A stretch of 64,000 nucleotides of DNA, from positions 33,178-97,177 of IMG/VR virus record IMGVR_UViG_2675903060_000003, one strand, 5' to 3'. Each line of letters begins with the position of its first letter. Positions within the stretch are counted from its first letter, which is position 1. This stretch comes from a virus (lineage: Duplodnaviria; Caudoviricetes). Positions 12,060 through 51,167 of the stretch are shown in pieces. A program made the position numbers and the translations under genes. The notes under the pieces were generated by a model. It saw only the letters and a program-made list of their open reading frames with translations. It made no database searches and had not been told where the DNA came from.

Positions 12060-15000
12060 TCAGCGTCGTATCGGCGCGGTCGCGGACCACCTGCGGGGGA
12101 CTGGATCGCTCGTGCGCCAACCTCTGGCTGGCGCGGTAGCGGACCATTGCCGGTGCGTCGGCGGGCCGATCGTGATGTCGATCTCCTGCGGGAGGTCTCC
12201 CGTCGACACGGACGGCGTCGGAATCGACGCGACCGCGGCCACCGCGGGCGGTCTTGCTGTGGTGGACAGCAGCGCCGCGGGGATCGTGGCGTACGCCTGG
12301 ACCGCTGCCGGAGTAGCAGCGACCAGGATCGTGGTGGTGGGTGTAGGTACCGCGGCAGTAGCCAGGACGATCGCGGGTTGAGCGGTGATGCTCGTCCCGG
12401 TGGACGGTCCCGGGATAGCCGCGGCGGCGTTGACCGTCTGAGGGGTGGCGGTGGCATTGCCGCCGGCCTCGACAGTCGGCGCCGGGATGTTCGCGTCCGC
12501 CTGGACGGTGTCCGGGGTGGCGGTCGCTCCGGTCGCTGCGGTCGGGCCGGGGATCGCCGTGGACGCCCCTACGACCTCCGGAGAGGCCGTAGAAGAGGCG
12601 GACACCTCAGGAACGCCTACGGACGCCTCAGAGGCGACTACAGGCGCGCTCGCGGTGGTCCCAGCCGAGACGTCCGGCTCCGGGATGGAGGCGGACGCCG
12701 CGACAGCGCCGGGTGTCGCGGTCGCCCCCGCCGAGGCGGTGGGTGCCGGGATCGTGGCGGTAGCGGGGACTGTCGTGGGCGAGGCTGTGGCGTCCGAGAC
12801 CAGAAGGCCGCCGACGTTGTCCCAGACGACGGTGGTGTCCGCGCCGACCGCCTGCCAGGCCCCGGCCTGGAGGATCAGCCGCGTCGAGGTGACCGTGATC
12901 GGGGTCGCCTCGGAGTGCAGCTCCGCCCAGGAGGAGCCGTCCGGGGACGCCTCCCAGTAGGTGGTGCCCGCGTCCTCCCGGATGCGGAGCCAGCGGTGAT
13001 CTGCCGGGCTGTAGGAGTGGAAGGCGAGGCTGGACTGGCTGCCGGAGACGACCTTGTAGATGCCGACGAATCCGCCCGCGATGACGAAGAACAGCCGGTT
13101 GATGGCGTCGGCCTCGACGATCGCGTAGACCTCAAGGCCGGTGGCCTGCGAACCGGCGTCGACCAGCTCGACCGCGAAGGCGCTGCCGGTCAGGTCGTAG
13201 GTGCCGGCGCTGGCGATCTGGCTGAACGCGACCGCCGAGCCGCTGATCTCGAACTGGTAGACGTCGTTCTGGCTGCCGGTGACGCCCGCGTTGTTGGTCG
13301 CTGTCCACAGGGCCGTGTCCAGCGTCGTCCCAGTGAAGGTGTCGCGGAGCTCGGATGCCGGAACGATACCGCCCGACACGTCAGGGGCCGGGACCGACGC
13401 GGACGCCTGGACGGTGTCCGGTGATGCCGTGGCGCCCGCCGATGTGGCAGGCTCCGGGATGTCGGCCGTCGATTCCACGGCCGCTGGGGCAGCCGACGAG
13501 CCGGCGCCTGCTTGCGGTGTCGGGATGGTGGTGGTCGCCGAGACCACGCCAGGGCTCGCAGTCGCCCCGGCGGTCGAAGTAGGCGCTGGAACGCTGGCAG
13601 TGGCCTCGACGACGTCTGTGGTGGCCGTGGAGCTCGCGGAGACGTCGGGCGTGTCCACGGAGCTGGTGGCCGTGACCGGTGCAGGAGTAGCCGCTGTGAC
13701 GGCGCCGACCGCCGGGGCGGGCACCGACGACGTCGCCTGTACGACGGACGGGGCCGCGGTGGCGCCGGCACCCGCAGTCGGGGCCGGGACGGTCGTGGAG
13801 GCGGTGACGATGCTCGGGGAGGCGACGACCTCGGCCAGCACCGAAGCCTCAGGGACGGACGCGGTCGCCTGCACCACGGAGGGTGAGGCGGTGACGCCCG
13901 CCGTGACAGACGGGGCCGGCACCGACGACTGTGCCTGGACGACCGCGGGCGAGACGGTAGAGCTGGTGCTCGCGGACGGCGCCGGCACTGCGGCCGAGGC
14001 CGGAACGATCGCAGGTGAGGCGGTGGAGCCGGTCGTGACCGTGACCGACGGCACCGAGACCGACGCGGTGGCCACCGTCGGCGAGGCGGTGGAGCCCGCT
14101 GACGTGGTGGGTGCCGGGACGGTCGCTGTTGCGGGGGCGACGCCCGGCGTGAGAGTCGACCCGGTGGAGATCGTCGCCGACGGCACCGACGTGGTGGCTG
14201 CGACGACGCCAGGAGCAGCCGTAGCACCCGCCCCGGCCGTAGGAGCGGGGACGCTGGCTGATGCCGACACCACGCCCGGAGAGACGGTCGAGCCCGCGCC
14301 GGTACTGGGAGCGGGAACCGATGCCGTGCCCGCCACCACTGACGGGGTGGCGGTGGCGTCCTGGCTAGACGGGGTGGCACCCGCGATGCCGATCGTGTGA
14401 CCGGCAGCGAAGACGAGCGACGCCGAGGGGGTGAAGTTCGCGGTGCTCGTCGGCGTCGAGCTGGACAGGGTGCGGGTGGCGAGCGTGGAGGTGACGTAGG
14501 TGGTGGACTGCAGGTCCGCCTGCTCGCTGAGCCCGCCGGGGGCGGTCCAGGAGACAGAACCGGGAGCAGTCGGGACACCCGTCGCGAACCGCAACTCCAC
14601 GCTGTTGGCGGCGGGAGGGGTGATGCCGGGCGTACCGATCGACGTGCCCGAGCCGGACGTCTCCTGCACCGTCGGCGTGGAAGTGGACGCGCCCGAGTAG
14701 GCGGCGATGATCACCGTGCCGTCAGCCGAGGCGTCCTGGGAGAAGTCCCACGACGTGGGCTCGCTGCCTCCTGCGATCTTCCAGTAGATGACGACCTGTA
14801 GGGCGTTCTCGCCCGCCGTGTACGTACGCAAGACCTGCCAGGTGGCACCGCCTGTGGGGGTGCCCATGTCGTCGAGGGTGCCGACGTCAGCCGAGTGGTG
14901 GGCGACCAGCAGGTCGCCGGAGACGACACCCGTCGGCTTGGTGGCGGTGAGCGGCGTCGTCCTCCCCGCGACGGACGTCACAGTGCCGCGCAGGACAGGC

Positions 15001-15785
15001 GGTGAGGCCGGAGCGGAGCCGTCCGACACGCTCGGAGCCGGAATCGACGCCGACCCGGTGACGACGCTCGGGGTGGCCGTGGCCGACGCCGGAGCCGACA
15101 CCGACGGGGCAGGAACCGACGACGTCGCGGCCACCACCGAAGGGGTGGCGGTCGCGTCCGTGCCGCCCCCGGACGGCAGGAAGACCGTGAACCCCAACCT
15201 GGACACGATCGCGCCGGACGCCAGATGGTTCTGGGCGCCCGTCGCTGCATTCGAACTAAGGATCTTGTACGCGGCCTCGGCATGCGTGAGCCACCCATGG
15301 TTCAGGTCCGCGCCAGCAGGCTCGGTGTACGTCGAAGGCGGGGCGAATGTCCGCGCGTTACCGTCGCCGTCCGCGCCAGCGAACCTGATCTCGATACCGC
15401 TGCTGCTGGATGGGGTGACGGTGGGCGTCTGGACGTTGTTGCCCGTCCCGGCGCTCACGCTCCCGTACACGCCGGGAAGGGCAGCCCCGGACACACAGAT
15501 CAGGATCGCAACCGACGACGCCCCGGCATGCGCGACCGAGTACGTGGTCGGCTCCGACCCAGTCGCGGTTTTCACGAACGTCCGGCCACGCGTGTACGTC
15601 TGGCCGCTGTTCATGCTGGACGCGAGCGTCCACCCTGACGGGGTTGTGATGTCGGTGGCGTTGCCGCTGTCAGTGAAAACCGCCAGAACCAGCACATCGC
15701 CCGAGACCACGTCCGAGGGGCGGGCGATCGTGTAGCCGCCGTTCGCGTTGCTCGCCGTGCTGTGGGAGCGGTACGCAGCAACCAC
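12060..15785 (-). CDS. 1241-aa fibre / adhesin-like virion protein with mucin-like ~25-aa Ala/Ser/Thr/Pro/Val repeats
   Basis: Two related N-terminal beta domains (PSDVVSGDVLVLAV / PTGVVSGDLLVAHH), >20 repeats like ATPSVVxATxSVPAPxxxAGxT, one lectin-like beta domain (LRDTF...WLRIRE...WEASPDG). Confidence 0.85.
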   Translation of the reverse strand: MVAAYRSHSTASNANGGYTIARPSDVVSGDVLVLAVFTDSGNATDITTPSGWTLASSMNSGQTYTRGRTFVKTATGSEPTTYSVAHAGASSVAILICVSGAALPGVYGSVSAGTGNNVQTPTVTPSSSSGIEIRFAGADGDGNARTFAPPSTYTEPAGADLNHGWLTHAEAAYKILSSNAATGAQNHLASGAIVSRLGFTVFLPSGGGTDATATPSVVAATSSVPAPSVSAPASATATPSVVTGSASIPAPSVSDGSAPASPPVLRGTVTSVAGRTTPLTATKPTGVVSGDLLVAHHSADVGTLDDMGTPTGGATWQVLRTYTAGENALQVVIYWKIAGGSEPTSWDFSQDASADGTVIIAAYSGASTSTPTVQETSGSGTSIGTPGITPPAANSVELRFATGVPTAPGSVSWTAPGGLSEQADLQSTTYVTSTLATRTLSSSTPTSTANFTPSASLVFAAGHTIGIAGATPSSQDATATPSVVAGTASVPAPSTGAGSTVSPGVVSASASVPAPTAGAGATAAPGVVAATTSVPSATISTGSTLTPGVAPATATVPAPTTSAGSTASPTVATASVSVPSVTVTTGSTASPAIVPASAAVPAPSASTSSTVSPAVVQAQSSVPAPSVTAGVTASPSVVQATASVPEASVLAEVVASPSIVTASTTVPAPTAGAGATAAPSVVQATSSVPAPAVGAVTAATPAPVTATSSVDTPDVSASSTATTDVVEATASVPAPTSTAGATASPGVVSATTTIPTPQAGAGSSAAPAAVESTADIPEPATSAGATASPDTVQASASVPAPDVSGGIVPASELRDTFTGTTLDTALWTATNNAGVTGSQNDVYQFEISGSAVAFSQIASAGTYDLTGSAFAVELVDAGSQATGLEVYAIVEADAINRLFFVIAGGFVGIYKVVSGSQSSLAFHSYSPADHRWLRIREDAGTTYWEASPDGSSWAELHSEATPITVTSTRLILQAGAWQAVGADTTVVWDNVGGLLVSDATASPTTVPATATIPAPTASAGATATPGAVAASASIPEPDVSAGTTASAPVVASEASVGVPEVSASSTASPEVVGASTAIPGPTAATGATATPDTVQADANIPAPTVEAGGNATATPQTVNAAAAIPGPSTGTSITAQPAIVLATAAVPTPTTTILVAATPAAVQAYATIPAALLSTTARPPAVAAVASIPTPSVSTGDLPQEIDITIGPPTHRQWSATAPARGWRTSDPVPRRWSATAPIRR

Positions 15786-32100: not shown

Positions 32101-33960
32101 TCGAGCACGGCGTAGCAGTCGCACGGGCCGTCCTCGTGGGTGGTGGGGCGGACGAAGCCGATCGCCCACGCCCTCCGCAGGGAGCGGCGGATGACCCGCT
32201 TGGGGTCGGAGGAGTCGACGGGCTCGCTGACGGTGTACTGGCGTCCGTCGCCGTCCGGCAGCGCTCGGAACGCGGACACGGCGACGGCGTTCTCGTGGAG
32301 TTCGGGCAGTTCCGGCTTGGTGGCAATGGTCGCGCTCATCGGGGACGCTCCGTTCAAGATCGGGTTGGGTGGCCCGGTGAGAACCGGGCCGGTATCGGCG
32401 GCGGTGCCGTCAAACAGTTCGGGCGCGGACCTCTTTCAGCCATGCCGCCACTACGGCCGGATCTTCGCCTGCGGACAGCCGGTCGCACGCCTGCCTGATC
32501 GCCGTGTCCAGAGTGGAGATGCGGGCCGCGTCCGCTCGGCGGGCTTCCGCAGTCAGGCGAGCATTGACGGCCAGGCTCCGCTCCTCGTGCTGCTCCTGGG
32601 CGGCGTCCCGCAGCAGGCCGGCGCGTGACAGGAGCAGGATCACGCCGAGGCTGTAGTCGTCGGCGTGCCACAGCACCCACCGGCGCTCGTTGAGGGCGTC
32701 GACAGCGGCCTGCTCGGCGGGGTTGAGCGGCTGGTCTTCGCGGAGGATCGCTCGGGCTTGGGCGGCGTCGGCGGTGGCGGCCATCGGGGTCTCCTCTGGG
32801 TCGGGCAGGAAGCAGATGCGGTCAGGCGGCCGGGAACAGCCCGGCCAGCGGGTTGCCGCAGTCCCGGCACCGCAGCGCGTCCGGGGCGGCAGGACGGCCC
32901 TGCGGAGGCTCCCCGCAAGAGCCGCAGCGAACGGACGGGCGGGGTCGGCGGAACAGAGACCGCAGACCCTCGACGAACAGGTCCACGAACTGGCGGGGCG
33001 AGCGGGGGACGTAGGCGAGCATCGGGGTTCCGTTCAGCATTGAGGGGGCAGCTCGTGGCAGGTGTAGCCGTGCTCGGCCAGCCACCTGCGGGTCTTCGCC
33101 AGCGACATCGGGCCGGTCTCAGGAGTGCCGGTCGCGCTCCACACGGCCTGAAGCTTGAAGTCGGCGTAGTGAAGTACCAGCCCGTAGTGGACGCCGTTCT
33201 CCAGCACGGGCATCGTTCGGGGAAGGCGAAGATCCTTCGGCATGTCGATCTCCAAGTCGGGACGGGAGGCTCCGGGCAGAGCCCGGAGCCCAGAAGACGG
33301 TCAGGCGTCGGCGGGCCAGAAGCGAGCAACCTGCCGCTCCGCCCAAGCGCGTTCACGGGGCGACTCTGAGACGTTGTAGTCGCGCACCAGGCCGGCGTCA
33401 GCGCTGAGGAGGCGTCTGACGATGGTCAGCGCCTCACGCGGCGGCAGGTCGTCCAGCTCGGCATCCCGCACCCCGACTGCGAAGCCAGCCAGCGCAGTCA
33501 CCATGTCGTCGCGTGACATCCGGAACTCGACCCGGAGCGTGATCCGCTCGACGCCGTCGCGCGACATCGTGACGTTGACGTGCTCTGGGTTCGTCATCTC
33601 CGGCTCCTTGGTCGTCGGGGGGTTGGGGTCGGTGTCCGGTCCCGGTACGGGACACCGGGACCGGGAGGGGGCGGGTCAGGCGGCGATCGTGCGCTGGTAC
33701 TCGTCGTCGCGCAGCGCCTCCGCCAGGTCGTCGAGGGCGCCGACGGCGGGCTGCAGCAGCGTGTCCATGACCTCGCGCGCCTGCTCGGCGGTGTCGCCGG
33801 CGTCTTCGGGCAGGGCCGCGCCGAGGGCGAGCAGGACACCGTGGACGATGCCCTTCAGCTTCTCGACCACCTCGGGGCTGTCGGAGGGCTGGTCGTTGAG
33901 GCGGGTGGTGAGGGCGTCCATGGCCTTCTCGGCGGCGGCGGCGAGCTCGATGGTGGTCAT
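29151..33960 (-). other. Run of ~17 small, translationally coupled hypothetical phage genes (e.g. 29341-29559, 29562-29747, 29734-30168, 30161-30358, 30799-31080, 31073-31264, 31266-31544, 31531-31863, 31959-32339, 32410-32784, 33034-33243, 33301-33597, 33676-33960)
   Basis: GGAG/GAGG RBSs, stop/start overlaps and intergenic hairpins; no recognisable domains. Confidence 0.7.
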
Positions 33961-41975: not shown

Positions 41976-42212
41976 GTGGAGCCCGAGATGACCGCTGAAC
42001 TGGTAGAAGCCGCGACCGCCTACAACGAAGCGCCGAAGCGGCTGCGCGACGCGATCGTGAAGGCTGCCGAGACCAGCGACGCGACCGCCACGGAGATCGC
42101 CCAGGCGATCAACTTCACGTACTCCGTGGACTACGTGGCGAAGATCGTGCGCGAGGCCGGCGTTGCCCGCCCCCGCGGCCGGCGTCCTCGCGCGCCGCGC
42201 TCCGACTCCTGA
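41976..42212 (+). CDS. Small HTH regulator
   Basis: LRDAIVKAA...TATEIAQAINFTYSVDYVAKIVREAG; GGAG RBS, probable start at MTAEL. Confidence 0.8.
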   Translation: MEPEMTAELVEAATAYNEAPKRLRDAIVKAAETSDATATEIAQAINFTYSVDYVAKIVREAGVARPRGRRPRAPRSDS

Positions 42213-42313
42213 TCTGGTTTGGCGGGTACCGGAAGAGGTCATGACGCCTCCCCCGGCCTGCGTGGTCGCCATTCCTGGTGCCATCTGTGCCCGCCTCCTT
42301 TCGCGTGTTCCGA

Positions 42314-42346
42314 GGGCCGCCCGCCCTGTAGCGGGCGGCCCGTTTT
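42314..42346 (+). terminator. Intrinsic terminator-like hairpin
   Basis: GGGCCGCCCGC-cctgta-GCGGGCGGCCC followed by GTTTT. Confidence 0.7.
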
Positions 42347-42399
42347 CGTGTGGTGACCAGCTCAGGTGTCAGCTGAAGGCATGGTCATGAAGCTGGTCC

Positions 42400-42840
42400 G
42401 TCGCCAGTGGCGCGGAGAGCCCTGTGGCACGGCTCGGCATGTCGGCCGGTTCGGGTCGGGCCCGGATTGTCGGGTCGGCCTGGCGAGAACGTGTCGTGTC
42501 CGGGGCTGTCGGCCAGGAGCGGGTGGGCGTGGCATGTCGTCGAGGACTGTCGCCGGGTAGGCGAGGTGTGTCGGCGCGGAGCGGCTGGGCCGGCGTGGAC
42601 AAGTCGGCCGGGGGTAGCGCATGGGCCGGCGTGGGTAGTCGCGTTGCCGTGGGAAGGCTCGGCTCGTCGGCGTGGCGAGGGATGGAAGGGTCTGGCATGT
42701 CGGTGTGATTTGGCGGGAACGAGACGGGGCTGGGCTTGTCGGCGCGGCGGGAGTGTGAGCAAGGCGTGGAGTGTCGGCCTGGACGGGGCGGTGCTGGTTT
42801 GTCGCGCAGGGGTGGCTAGCCGTATCGGTCACGGCGTCGC
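42400..42840. repeat. Non-CRISPR array: 13 GTCG-delimited units of 28-41 bp, each built from (GGN-NN) pentamers; candidate guide-RNA array
   Basis: GTCG at 42400, 42441, 42469, 42508, 42536, 42570, 42603, 42638, 42666, 42699, 42738, 42773, 42801 and 42836; e.g. GTC GGC-GT GGC-GA GGG-AT GGA-AG GGT-CT GGC-AT GTC. Confidence 0.88.
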
Positions 42841-42855
42841 AGAAGAGGGCGTCCA

Positions 42856-43593
42856 TCAGATCCGCTCCCAGGCCAGCAGCTCGAACTTGCCGTCCGACCG
42901 GCCGCGGTCGGCGCCGACGCCGATGTCCTCGCCGCGCTCCCAGATGCGCCCCCAGGCTTGCGGGGTGAGGAAGTCGTCGTGGACCTTCAGCTCGAACTCC
43001 AGGACCGGCGACTGGACGTACTCGACGCGGTTGATCGACGAGCGGGGCCCCTGCGGGGTCATGACGTGCTTGATGCGCTCCTCAACGCCGGTGGGCTCCT
43101 TCACACCGAGCCCGATGTACACGTCGGGGACGAACACCCGCTCCGACAGGGTCGCCATCAGCCCCTTCCGGAAGCCCTTCGGCAGCGGCCGGCCCACGTC
43201 GCTTCCGGTGGCGGTCTTGCCGTCCCAGTCGACGCCGGGGTAGGCCGAGTTCGCCCACTCCTTCAGCGCCGCCTTCATGCACCGGCCCTCGTAGGCGAGC
43301 TCGCCCGTGTCGGGGACGCGTTTGAACCCGTTGATCGACGGGGCGGCGTCGGACTCCATGAGCGCGTCGGCGAGCTCGTCCGCGGACGGCTGACGGTCCG
43401 GGAACCGCTCCGTGAGGGTCTTCTGCACGAGCTCTTGCAGGTGCCGGTCGCCGATGTCCATGCGGGTCTTCAGCCAGCCCTTGATGACGGACGGCGACGA
43501 CGGAACCCCTCCCACGATCTTGTCGAGGATCTGCAGCCGGACCCGGTAGCAGGCCACGCTGGAGGAGGTGCCGAAGATGTCGACGGCGCCCAT
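42856..43593 (-). CDS. Stand-alone Cas7/RAMP-superfamily-like protein (245 aa)
   Basis: N-terminal strand YRVRLQILDKIVGG, AYEGRCMKAALKE helix, beta-hairpin EERIKHV...RSSINRVEYV, LEFELKV strand and C-terminal Gly-rich loop GVGADRGRSDGKFEL. Confidence 0.8.
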   Translation of the reverse strand: MGAVDIFGTSSSVACYRVRLQILDKIVGGVPSSPSVIKGWLKTRMDIGDRHLQELVQKTLTERFPDRQPSADELADALMESDAAPSINGFKRVPDTGELAYEGRCMKAALKEWANSAYPGVDWDGKTATGSDVGRPLPKGFRKGLMATLSERVFVPDVYIGLGVKEPTGVEERIKHVMTPQGPRSSINRVEYVQSPVLEFELKVHDDFLTPQAWGRIWERGEDIGVGADRGRSDGKFELLAWERI

Positions 43594-44003
43594 CAGCCGG
43601 CCGCCTTCCGGTCCGCGGGGACAGCGGTCAGGCTCGGGCGTGCGGTGGCCCGTTCCAGCGCCGCCTCGGCGTTCTTGCGCTTGTGCTTCTCCTCGTCGAC
43701 CTTCGCTTGGAGGCTGGCCACGTAGTCGGCGACGGACGGCGGCAGCTCGATCGGCTCGGCCAGTTCGGCGCGGGTCTGCCGCAGCGCCCGCTTGGCCTGC
43801 CCGTAGCGGACCACGACCGACTGGACCTGCGTCGCCCCTTCGAGGGCGCGGAACAGGTCGAACAGCTCGCGCGGCGTCTTGCCGTCGAGGGTTTGCCCGG
43901 TGATCGCCTCGATGTCTGCGCGGACGCCGGGGTCGTGCTGGATCAGCGCCACGACGGCGTCGAACTCGTCCGGGCTGTAGTCCTGGGGGTTGCGTGCTCT
44001 CAT
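43593..44003 (-). CDS. Helical / coiled-coil protein (136 aa), TGATG-coupled to the RAMP-like gene
   Basis: GAGG RBS; stop overlaps the RAMP start. Confidence 0.8.
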   Translation of the reverse strand: MRARNPQDYSPDEFDAVVALIQHDPGVRADIEAITGQTLDGKTPRELFDLFRALEGATQVQSVVVRYGQAKRALRQTRAELAEPIELPPSVADYVASLQAKVDEEKHKRKNAEAALERATARPSLTAVPADRKAAG

Positions 44004-44030
44004 CGTTGAAGTCCTCGGGGTGCGTGGTGG

Positions 44031-44306
44031 TCAGGTTGCGGAAGCAGCGGCGCGGCTTGCGGCACGCTGGCGGCGGCGTTTGATGGCGTCGCGCTCGGCG
44101 TCGGTGGTTCCGCCCCACACACCGACCACGCCATTCGCCAGCGCCCACTCCTTGCAAGAACTGATGACGCGGCAGCCGCCGCAGACCTTCTTGGCCTTCT
44201 CGATCTGCAGAAGGGCGGCACCGGTGTTGCCGATCGGGAAGAACATCTCGGGGTCGATGGAGCGGCAGGCGGCGCGGCGGCGCCAGCCCGATCCAGGGCT
44301 AGTCAT
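44031..44306 (-). CDS. WhiB-family Fe-S transcription factor (WhiB1/WblE-like)
   Basis: WRRRAAC...DPEMFFPIGNTGAALLQIEKAKKVCGGC...C...GVWGG. Confidence 0.95.
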   Translation of the reverse strand: MTSPGSGWRRRAACRSIDPEMFFPIGNTGAALLQIEKAKKVCGGCRVISSCKEWALANGVVGVWGGTTDAERDAIKRRRQRAASRAAASAT

Positions 44307-49511: not shown

Positions 49512-50020
49512 CACGCACCCCCGGAGAGCGAGGTCTGACCGGGGTGAACCTCGGTCTCGGCGGGCTTGGCGTCCTGGATGGTCTGCTGAAGTTCCTGAGT
49601 AGCCGTAAGGGTCTGCCAGCGCTTGAGTGCCGCGTCCTGGACCGCCTTCGGGTCGATGCCGAACGACTCCAGCGCCGTCCACGTCAGAGCGACGAGAGGC
49701 GGGTCCTCCCAGTCGTCCCACATCTGGGCGGCGATCTCGTCCGCCTTCTCCGGCAGGTGCTCGATCAGGGCGCGCAGCAGGAACGACACCGAATGCTCGG
49801 CGGTCATAAGCGCCTGATTCTGGAGGTAGCGGGACGCGGCGTCGGCGAAGTTCTCGCCCGACTTCTCCGCCTCCATCTGCGCCTTGAAGAAGGTCTGGTT
49901 CAGTGACGCCGACCAGTGCGCCTCTACCGCCATGTACTCGGCGAGCCGGCGCGCGGTCGCCTCCTCGGGCGTGTTCGGGTAGGAGGCGAAGTCGTCCACC
50001 GTGGGCAGGTTGTCGGTCAT
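49511..50020 (-). CDS. Hypothetical protein
   Basis: 169-aa coupled ORF. Confidence 0.75.
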   Translation of the reverse strand: MTDNLPTVDDFASYPNTPEEATARRLAEYMAVEAHWSASLNQTFFKAQMEAEKSGENFADAASRYLQNQALMTAEHSVSFLLRALIEHLPEKADEIAAQMWDDWEDPPLVALTWTALESFGIDPKAVQDAALKRWQTLTATQELQQTIQDAKPAETEVHPGQTSLSGGA

Positions 50021-50862
50021 CAGGCGTCGCTCCCTGCGAAGAGTTCGGCTTGCTCGTCGCGGGCGTACTCGCCGGCGTAGTACATGTCCCAGACCTCTTC
50101 GAAGAGAGGCAGGTCCCTGCGGGTCCAGGCGTAGGTTTCGCGAACCGCGCCGCTGACGGTGTCCTCGGCCCGCTTGGCAGGCATCGGACGCTGTTCGGCG
50201 AGCGCGACCTTGACCACGCGACGCCCGAACCAGGACTGCGCAGACCTGATCTGCGCCTGCGTGAGCCCCTTCGACTTCAGGAAGTCAGGAACGTACAGCG
50301 GCAGGTCCTCGTCGGGAATCTCCGGCTCCTCGCCGAGACCGATCGACGTGTGGATCTGGATCCTTAAGCGCTGCCACTTCGGGTCGAGATAGCCATCGCC
50401 CGCGATGAGCAGTTCGACCCTCGCCTTGGCGAGGTGGACGCGCTCGATCGCCTCTGAGCGCTGCTCGTGGGTGGCGACCTCTTCGACGTTCAGGAGGTAG
50501 GCGCGGACATCCTTGGCGACGGCCGACTCGGTGAGCATCTGGCCGACGTTGAGGATGGCGCGGCGGTTGAAGATGTTGAGCGACCGGCGGTTGGGCGAGG
50601 GGGTCAGGTTGACCCTCTCGAACTCGCGCAGGTCTTCGCCCTCAAGGCGCTTCAGGCCGTTGCGCTCAAGCTCCTGCCGGTTGCGCCGGACGACGCTCTT
50701 GATGGTCTCGACTTCCACCTCGTAGTAGTCGGCGACCAGTTCGGTGGTCATGTGTACGCCGTCAGACAGGAGGCTGAGCGCCTTCACCTTGTCGAGGACG
50801 TCCACCCGCTCCACGTACTGAGCGCGGAGGGTAGGGCTCTCGATCATCGCCAGCTCGTTCAC
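50020..50862 (-). CDS. Antirepressor-like DNA-binding protein
   Basis: VDVLDKVKALSLL...TELVADYYEV...NRQELERNG...RRAILNVGQMLTESAVAKDVRAYLL. Confidence 0.8.
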   Translation of the reverse strand: MNELAMIESPTLRAQYVERVDVLDKVKALSLLSDGVHMTTELVADYYEVEVETIKSVVRRNRQELERNGLKRLEGEDLREFERVNLTPSPNRRSLNIFNRRAILNVGQMLTESAVAKDVRAYLLNVEEVATHEQRSEAIERVHLAKARVELLIAGDGYLDPKWQRLRIQIHTSIGLGEEPEIPDEDLPLYVPDFLKSKGLTQAQIRSAQSWFGRRVVKVALAEQRPMPAKRAEDTVSGAVRETYAWTRRDLPLFEEVWDMYYAGEYARDEQAELFAGSDA

Positions 50863-51053
50863 GCCGCCGCTCCCGTGCGGCACATGCGCTGCCGCGCCTC
50901 GTACGCCTCGATGGAGGTGATGAGCACCTTGACGGGCGAGTTGCGGGCGTCGCCCAGCTTGATCGCCTCGATCTCGCCGGCGCGGATGTGCTTGAGCAGC
51001 GTCGGAGGGCTGATGTTGAGCCGACCGCAGGCTTGCGTTCTGGACAGGTACAT
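50859..51053 (-). CDS. Excisionase-like (HTH_17 / MerR-type) DNA-binding protein
   Basis: YLSRTQACGRLNISPPTLLKHIRAGEIEAIKLG. Confidence 0.85.
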   Translation of the reverse strand: MYLSRTQACGRLNISPPTLLKHIRAGEIEAIKLGDARNSPVKVLITSIEAYEARQRMCRTGAAA

Positions 51054-51167
51054 GTGACTCACTCCTTCCCTTCGCTTTCCATCTCTTGCCAATCTTAGCC
51101 AACTCTAGCCGCTAAATGAATGCCCAAGCGACAGGGAATCTCTGGTCATCTCTGTACACATGGAAGG

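Follow-up and report, generated by a model that had tools for sequence, protein, structure and literature searches.

A prophage locus in a 10-Mb actinomycete genome with a Cas7-like gene and a GTC-punctuated array of five-base repeats, a probable VIPR system

We analysed a 64,000-nucleotide stretch of viral DNA (IMG/VR record IMGVR_UViG_2675903060_000003, positions 33,178 to 97,177), hereafter the window, with positions counted from its first base. In this window, which belongs to a 10-Mb actinomycete genome, a Cas7-like gene, a partner gene and a five-base-repeat array of about 400 bases lie side by side within a prophage. The arrangement recalls the VIPR systems (for Viral Interference Programmable Repeat) documented in 2026 preprints (bioRxiv 10.64898/2026.04.26.720920, 10.64898/2026.04.26.720927 and 2026.10.15.759431), and the Cas7-like gene is designated here as vipr and the presumptive guide RNA of the array as vrRNA. 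The elements of the locus are as follows:

42314-42351, plus strand: terminator of intrinsic type (11-bp stem made up wholly of GC pairs, then a T-run) that ends the plus-strand gene lying upstream and bounds the locus distally
42352-42440, plus strand: leader, reaching from the terminator to where the clean units begin; putative promoter or 5′ leader of an array transcript
42441-42800, plus strand: guide array of 11 GTC-headed units, each with 5-8 pentamers of the form G-G/r-N-N-N; candidate vrRNA segments
42801-42844, plus strand: terminal unit with the conserved tail (palindrome, stem-loop and GTCGC), conserved in 18 loci
42856-43593, minus strand: vipr, encoding a 245-amino-acid (aa) Cas7-like repeat-associated mysterious protein (RAMP)
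43593-44003, minus strand: candidate vipr-accessory gene, encoding an all-helical protein of 136 aa, upstream of vipr

The G-rich strand of the array is the plus strand, opposite to vipr, and the two are convergent; the last conserved array element ends at 42840, 15 nt from the vipr stop codon (42856-42858).

The Cas7-like protein and its relationship to Vipr

The minus strand of 42856-43593 translates to 245 aa without an internal stop, and vipr is present as a single copy in the 10-Mb genome. The AlphaFold2 model of the protein, built with 22 aligned homologues, reached a predicted local distance difference test score (pLDDT) of 87.5 and consists of a first strand (beta1, 13-22), a helical bundle (34-80), helix-1 (103-117), a thumb hairpin (169-194) and a glycine-rich loop (224-235). 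When the model was compared with the PDB by VIA-align, 20 of the 22 best matches were Cas7-family subunits with Z between 7.8 and 11.1, the chains at ranks 6 and 13 being longer ones, classed here only as belonging to Csm complexes. The best match was Csm3 (9g9a_D; Z 11.1, 155 residues aligned, root-mean-square deviation 4.3), and the others included Cas7-11 (Z 10.4), Cmr (10.3), type VII Cas7 (10.3) and type IV Csf2 (9.2), with Cmr4 also among the families. Foldseek agreed on the Cas7 family with E values down to 2e-7, and in the viral structure library BFVD the best matches were phage or viral RAMP-like proteins. On the strength of the model, the 245-aa protein can be predicted confidently to adopt a Cas7/Csm3-type RAMP fold.

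At the level of sequence, the protein had no match in the curated families of Pfam, PHROGs, NCBIfam and PADLOC, while a few members of its family touched Cas6_C or RAMPs in Pfam below threshold, and a sequence-profile search of the PDB found neither Cas7 nor Vipr. The family itself is large, comprising 880 clusters at 50% identity (E below 0.001). For comparison with a characterised system, the VIPR locus of Escherichia phage SUSP1 was located through its GGYNN runs at 27.6-29.2 kb of NC_028808.2, and its Vipr (195 aa) was recognised by the residues given in the cryo-electron microscopy paper (H17, K33, E71, M72, R138, D177, W178 and R179). Searched with a family profile (A1), the SUSP1 genome yielded no match, nor did hhalign recover a relationship when SUSP1 Vipr was used as a single sequence. 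Profile against profile, hhalign aligned the 44-member family of the window protein (A2) with a 28-member SUSP1 clade (A3) at a probability of 91.7% and an E value of 7.9e-7 over 135 columns, and the match spans helix-1, the thumb and the G-loop. Two residues that are invariant in the family, R230 and G225, fall within it opposite R179 and G174 of SUSP1 Vipr. In SUSP1, purines are kept out of scaffold position 3 by the pocket residues E71 and M72; the window protein has R104 and C105 at the aligned places, a replacement that would fit the relaxed third base of the array described below. Three helices (34-47, 50-63 and 71-80) are inserted in the model after the first strand, in a region outside the hhalign match, and the resulting domain order of strand, three-helix insertion, helix-1, hairpin and glycine-rich loop is the order described for Vipr.

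The partner gene is conserved, its place immediately upstream of vipr being kept in 11 of the 12 Streptosporangiaceae loci, and in the window its stop codon overlaps the vipr start (UGAUG). Its product was modelled as a helical protein (pLDDT 76), for which neither Pfam, PHROGs, PADLOC nor NCBIfam gave a match; the model had no informative fold match in the PDB and no recognisable DNA-binding fold, and the atlas gave no lead above noise. This 136-aa protein would be translationally coupled to Vipr and may act as a Vap-like accessory factor.

The pentamer array, its relatives and its setting

The array was parsed by dynamic programming using three tokens: GTC; a pentamer, which scores higher with G in either of its first two positions; and a one-base slip, which incurs a penalty. 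The parse of 42441-42835 on the plus strand gave 12 GTC-headed units with 70 pentamers and 9 single-base slips; no two units are identical, and G starts 68 of the 70 pentamers and GG 49 of them. The score of this parse, 149, compares with 52.7 +/- 9.6 for dinucleotide-preserving shuffles (maximum 77 among 300; z about 10) and with 35 for the highest-scoring stretch of equal size elsewhere on both strands of the window. Counted over both strands, the 10-Mb genome contains 18 strict units of the form GTC-(GGNNN)n-GTCG, of which six belong to the array and the other 12 are singletons. Among the window pentamers, G occupies position 1 in 95% and position 2 in 67%, position 3 is C in 50, G in 24, A in 16 and T in 10%, and positions 4 and 5 are near uniform. 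Three runs of 4-6 GGNNN pentamers were found. The array, with its variable coding positions, fits the published relaxed repeat classes NNNGG or NNNNG, which bioRxiv 10.64898/2026.04.26.720920 lists along with YNNNG.

Conventional periodicity tests perform poorly on this array, because its phase starts anew at every GTC and every slip: a plain whole-array Fourier test for period 5 was weak and Tandem Repeats Finder did not detect the array, while the GG autocorrelation at lag 5 (0.28) was the highest of all lags. The two bases preceding GTC are A/T-biased across all arrays (window 42441-42840 and the related loci L001-L043), with TT, AT and AA leading; the base immediately before GTC is T in 46% of cases and A in another 24%, and GG follows GTC in about half of the cases. 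Because of this bias and of the frequent GG, the boundary motif is nearer to WW-GTC-GG, which, judged from the sequence, could be a processing site. An interpretation of the array as a protein-coding open reading frame (ORF; 42362-42856, minus strand) was rejected, because array length and content vary between close relatives.

About 22 further distinct homologous loci carry an array of like construction, placed just past the gene and on the opposite strand. The set comprises 12 Streptosporangiaceae genomes, a Dormibacteria metagenome-assembled genome (MAG), the Microcystis phage Mae-JY09 and 9 IMG/VR contigs (two of them duplicating genome loci), and such an array adjoins every examined homologue with enough flanking DNA, including those of the Dormibacteria MAG and of Mae-JY09, each of which is 34% identical to the window Vipr. 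In the 15 arrays counted, the distance from GTCG to the following GTCG leaves a remainder of 3 when divided by 5 in 81 of 202 units (20% would be expected), and in these in-phase units G stands at position 1 in 97% and at position 2 in 71%, positions 4 and 5 being uniform. Units most often hold 6 or 7 pentamers, and array lengths range from about 340 to over 1,000 nt. The content of the arrays differs even where the proteins are 86% identical, most units being unique to one locus and a few recognisably homologous between loci. One such homologous unit carries a one-base slip, an extra A between the fourth and fifth pentamers (window 42699-42737), that is kept in its counterparts in L036 and L025, and for this reason slips may be features of the array rather than signs of decay.

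Three of the related loci have peculiarities of their own. The L004 array contains a unit with ten identical GGCTT pentamers followed by five varied ones (about 886-960 of the oriented stretch), which looks like a local expansion within a guide array. In Mae-JY09 (L014; PP395641.1, 37174-38976), vipr is accompanied by an overlapping upstream gene for 179 aa and by a GTC-punctuated array at the extreme end of the linear record, the genes being annotated as hypothetical. The Dormibacteria locus (L013; JBEKXW010000030.1) has the cleanest array, with units of 3-5 pentamers that almost all start with GG and with 12 of 16 unit lengths in phase.

The gene-proximal end of the array carries the conserved tail. 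In 18 loci, a palindrome of 8 bases that never varies leads into a 5-bp stem with a variable loop, and GTCGC, likewise invariant, closes the element; in the window these parts are GGCTAGCC at 42814-42821, the pairing of 42819-42823 with 42831-42835 around a loop of 7 nt, and 42836-42840. The stem is paired in 18 of 18 loci, its closing pair being U-A in 13 and C-G in 5 and never mismatched. There is one such conserved hairpin for each array rather than for each unit, and it is likely the counterpart of the tail of type II vrRNA, the starting point of filament assembly.

At the distal end, the terminator hairpin (42314-42351) stands in the same place in L002 and L036. It is followed by a block of about 45 nt (about 42362-42406) that is almost identical in L002, though the L002 array differs, and that was not found in the other loci; from its sequence this block may be a promoter or leader specific to the sub-clade of the window and L002. 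A sigma-70-type promoter consensus was not found at the window locus, and in L033 the sole clear promoter of this type points away from the array. An Rfam scan of 42200-44100 returned no family, and in particular no hammerhead.

These results can be set against the original prediction, which had been made from the sequence alone. Its description of a RAMP-like ORF of 245 aa is borne out by the stop-free frame, the pLDDT of the model and the Cas7-family Z scores, and the distance of about 15 bp that it gave between the array and the end of the ORF agrees with the spacing measured here. Its count of 13 non-identical units with 5-7 pentamers was essentially right, and the periodic array that it expected next to homologues was indeed found beside every one examined. 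As to the statement that CRISPR (short palindromic repeats, clustered and regularly interspaced) and cas1/2/3/5/6 genes are lacking, it held for CRISPR-like direct repeats, none of which occur in the 64-kb window, and for Cas1, which is absent from the whole genome (100% complete); the other cas genes were not searched singly.

The surrounding window encodes a terminase, two Ant-type anti-repressors, a primase/helicase, a methyltransferase, WhiB and an HNH protein, and on account of these genes the locus is placed in a prophage, with the array between the replication genes and a regulatory cluster. The two Ant-like genes (19548-20678 and 50020-51102, both on the minus strand) are separate and about 30 kb apart, and the window may therefore span more than one phage-derived element. 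In the structural region, a minus-strand ORF of 1241 aa (12060-15785) matched nothing in PHROGs at E 1e-5; its size would suit a tail or tape-measure protein. Two tandem 33-nt copies with 85% identity lie at 61956-62021.

Proposed mode of action and alternative readings

Taking together the fold, the homology to SUSP1 Vipr, the anatomy and conservation of the array, the synteny of the two genes and the prophage setting, we conclude that the locus is very probably a prophage-borne VIPR system. For its mode of action we infer the following, in part by analogy with the characterised systems. Transcription of the G-rich strand would begin at the distal end of the array and proceed towards the 3′ end of vipr, a direction suggested by the G-based scaffold, by the terminator and conserved leader at the distal end, and by hairpins between gene and array in some relatives. 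Vipr protomers would then polymerise on the array RNA into a ribonucleoprotein, one protomer per pentamer, each holding the G-G-(N) scaffold and exposing the last two bases of its pentamer. The exposed dinucleotides would pair with a gapped double-stranded DNA sequence of a competing phage, prophage or satellite, one target base being skipped per step. Since no nuclease is encoded alongside, binding of the target would repress its transcription rather than lead to cutting, and a competing mobile element would thereby be silenced. The GUC marks, mostly standing after A or U, would set a dozen short guide segments apart from one another, and could serve for processing or else as breaks of register along a single long RNA. 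The role of anti-CRISPR decoy, which had been raised as an alternative to silencing, found no support.

Several observations weigh against this reading of the locus, and they concern both the protein and the RNA. The hhalign match to the SUSP1 clade covers only the C-terminal 55% of the protein, and within it D177 of SUSP1, the residue that reads the first G, aligns to alanine in the window family; because of this alanine, the readout of the bases may differ from that in SUSP1. The partner protein shows no similarity to SUSP1 Vap1. In 42441-42835 there is no run of at least four tandem canonical GGYNN (YNNGG) pentamers. The units carry 10-16 coded bases, too few for uniqueness in a 10-Mb genome, in contrast to the type II guides with their 9-16 repeats.

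The searches for targets gave no lead. The original prediction had suggested searching genomes with the dinucleotide codes of the units, and this proposal was not rewarded: five window units, with skips of 0-3, had no matches above controls in their own genome, and the same was true of adjacent units joined with gaps of -1 to 11. When 70 units of all loci were compared with 262 kb of phage and prophage sequence, the one signal to stand out was the trivial match of the arrays to themselves at skip 3. Read with the 1-nt-skip rule, a 10-pentamer unit of L010 had no match with up to one mismatch in 401 genomes of the family and no exact match in IMG/VR, and for two 10-pentamer units searched in five host genomes with as many as 3 mismatches allowed, the counts resembled those of the reversed-pattern control.

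The alternative that survives best keeps a VIPR-type protein and exchanges the strand, the functional RNA being the C-rich strand as a 3′ extension of the vap-vipr mRNA, with (NNNCC)n units punctuated by GAC. We consider this unlikely, even though the array follows vipr directly downstream on the coding strand in every locus, no T-rich terminator separates gene and array in the window, the vrRNAs of SUSP1 run in the direction of vipr, and the G-reading aspartate of SUSP1 is not conserved in the window family. All VIPR repeats so far characterised or surveyed are G-based on the RNA strand; moreover, a GC-rich hairpin stands between the vipr stop and the array in L002, L006 and L007, and a strong plus-strand terminator followed by a conserved leader ahead of the array fits an independent G-rich transcript.

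Considerably less probable is a decayed or idle VIPR remnant devoid of functional guides, by which the slips and off-consensus pentamers would be explained. Nine slips and several poor pentamers within 395 nt, together with the empty target searches, are what such a remnant would leave; yet the protein is intact, 86-87% identical to several relatives and rich in invariant residues, two other loci share one of the slips, at an unchanged position, in their homologous units, and the published pipeline (bioRxiv 10.64898/2026.04.26.720920) also reports frequent internal degeneracy of vrRNA. The least probable reading, to which we give hardly any weight, takes the array as DNA, i.e. iterons or operators (TGTCGG at 28-38-bp spacing) for a phage DNA-binding protein, for example at a replication origin beside the primase, with the RAMP gene merely adjacent; the place of the array between replication genes and regulatory cluster and the invariant 8-base palindrome of the tail, a possible dimer-binding site, would suit it, but it leaves unexplained the strand-asymmetric 5-nt phase of G, the unit lengths of 3+5n and the hypervariable content, and in three phyla as well as in a cyanophage the array comes after the RAMP gene, with changing neighbours.

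Within the reading as a VIPR system, we propose only tentatively, and with more doubt than conviction, that the array of this clade represents a distinct and as yet uncharacterised VIPR architecture. In it, one antisense RNA, with its only nucleation hairpin at the 3′ end, would hold a dozen short guides of 10-16 coded bases with 3-nt GUC register breaks after A or U, and the relaxed third scaffold base may add to the code. Specificity would then arise from short filaments acting jointly on clustered sites, or from processing at GUC, and not from one long guide.

Relation to known systems

VIPR has been proposed as the viral ancestor of the CRISPR backbone proteins and as a compact programmable tool for DNA silencing. 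The locus described here, together with its relatives, indicates that VIPR is common in prophages of filamentous actinomycetes and occurs in a cyanophage too. If its layout does represent a multi-guide transcript, the known design space of VIPR systems would be wider, and the question would arise how 10-16 coded bases give specificity in 10-Mb genomes of 70% G+C. As an individual finding, it adds a member and no new principle.

Among class 1 CRISPR systems, the Cas7 proteins (Csm3, Cmr4, Csf2 and the Cas7-11 domains) share with the window protein the RNA-recognition-motif core, the thumb hairpin and the glycine-rich loop, and in Cas7 one subunit likewise covers a fixed stretch of guide RNA. 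The differences are that CRISPR repeats are missing from the window and Cas1 from the genome, that the protein has no above-threshold RAMP match in Pfam, and that the footprint would be 5 nt at the window locus as against 6 nt for Cas7.

Of the VIPR types themselves, types I and III-VII and the non-canonical VIPR arrays offer relaxed repeats and staggered arrays for comparison, and the window locus is assigned to none of the types here. In bioRxiv 10.64898/2026.04.26.720920, arrays are called staggered if the end of one vrRNA serves as the beginning of the following one, and the accessory genes of types II, VI and VII are given as predicted DNA-binding; a survey reports 99 clusters of 5-nt period beside Vipr-like folds (bioRxiv 10.64898/2026.10.21.760802).

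The closest comparison is with type II, known from Escherichia phage SUSP1 and a Pseudomonas fulva prophage. Both have a minimal RAMP of Cas7-like build (helical bundle, thumb and G-loop), a phage-borne locus of two genes (in the window, vipr and a candidate accessory gene) without CRISPR or other cas genes (for the window locus, Cas1 and repeats were those searched), and an adjacent non-coding array whose 5-nt repeats combine a G-G scaffold with variation in the last two bases. The window locus differs from type II in the size of the protein (245 aa versus 195 aa in SUSP1), in scaffold position 3, which is not limited to pyrimidine, and in its units of 5-8 pentamers as compared with 9-16 repeats. 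In addition, its units abut at GTC with one hairpin per array, whereas each type II vrRNA has a structured 3′ tail; its array lies on the strand opposite to vipr, that of type II on the same strand; and its candidate accessory gene is located upstream instead of downstream and is unrelated in sequence to Vap1. The original prediction had likened the locus to VIPR and had suspected a variant layout with GTC punctuation, a relaxed GGN scaffold and the opposite strand: the system is real and published, the family of the window protein is homologous to SUSP1 Vipr by profile, and the layout does depart from type II in these three respects. We thus regard the locus as a genuine further example of the known VIPR kind with an unusual layout of its array.

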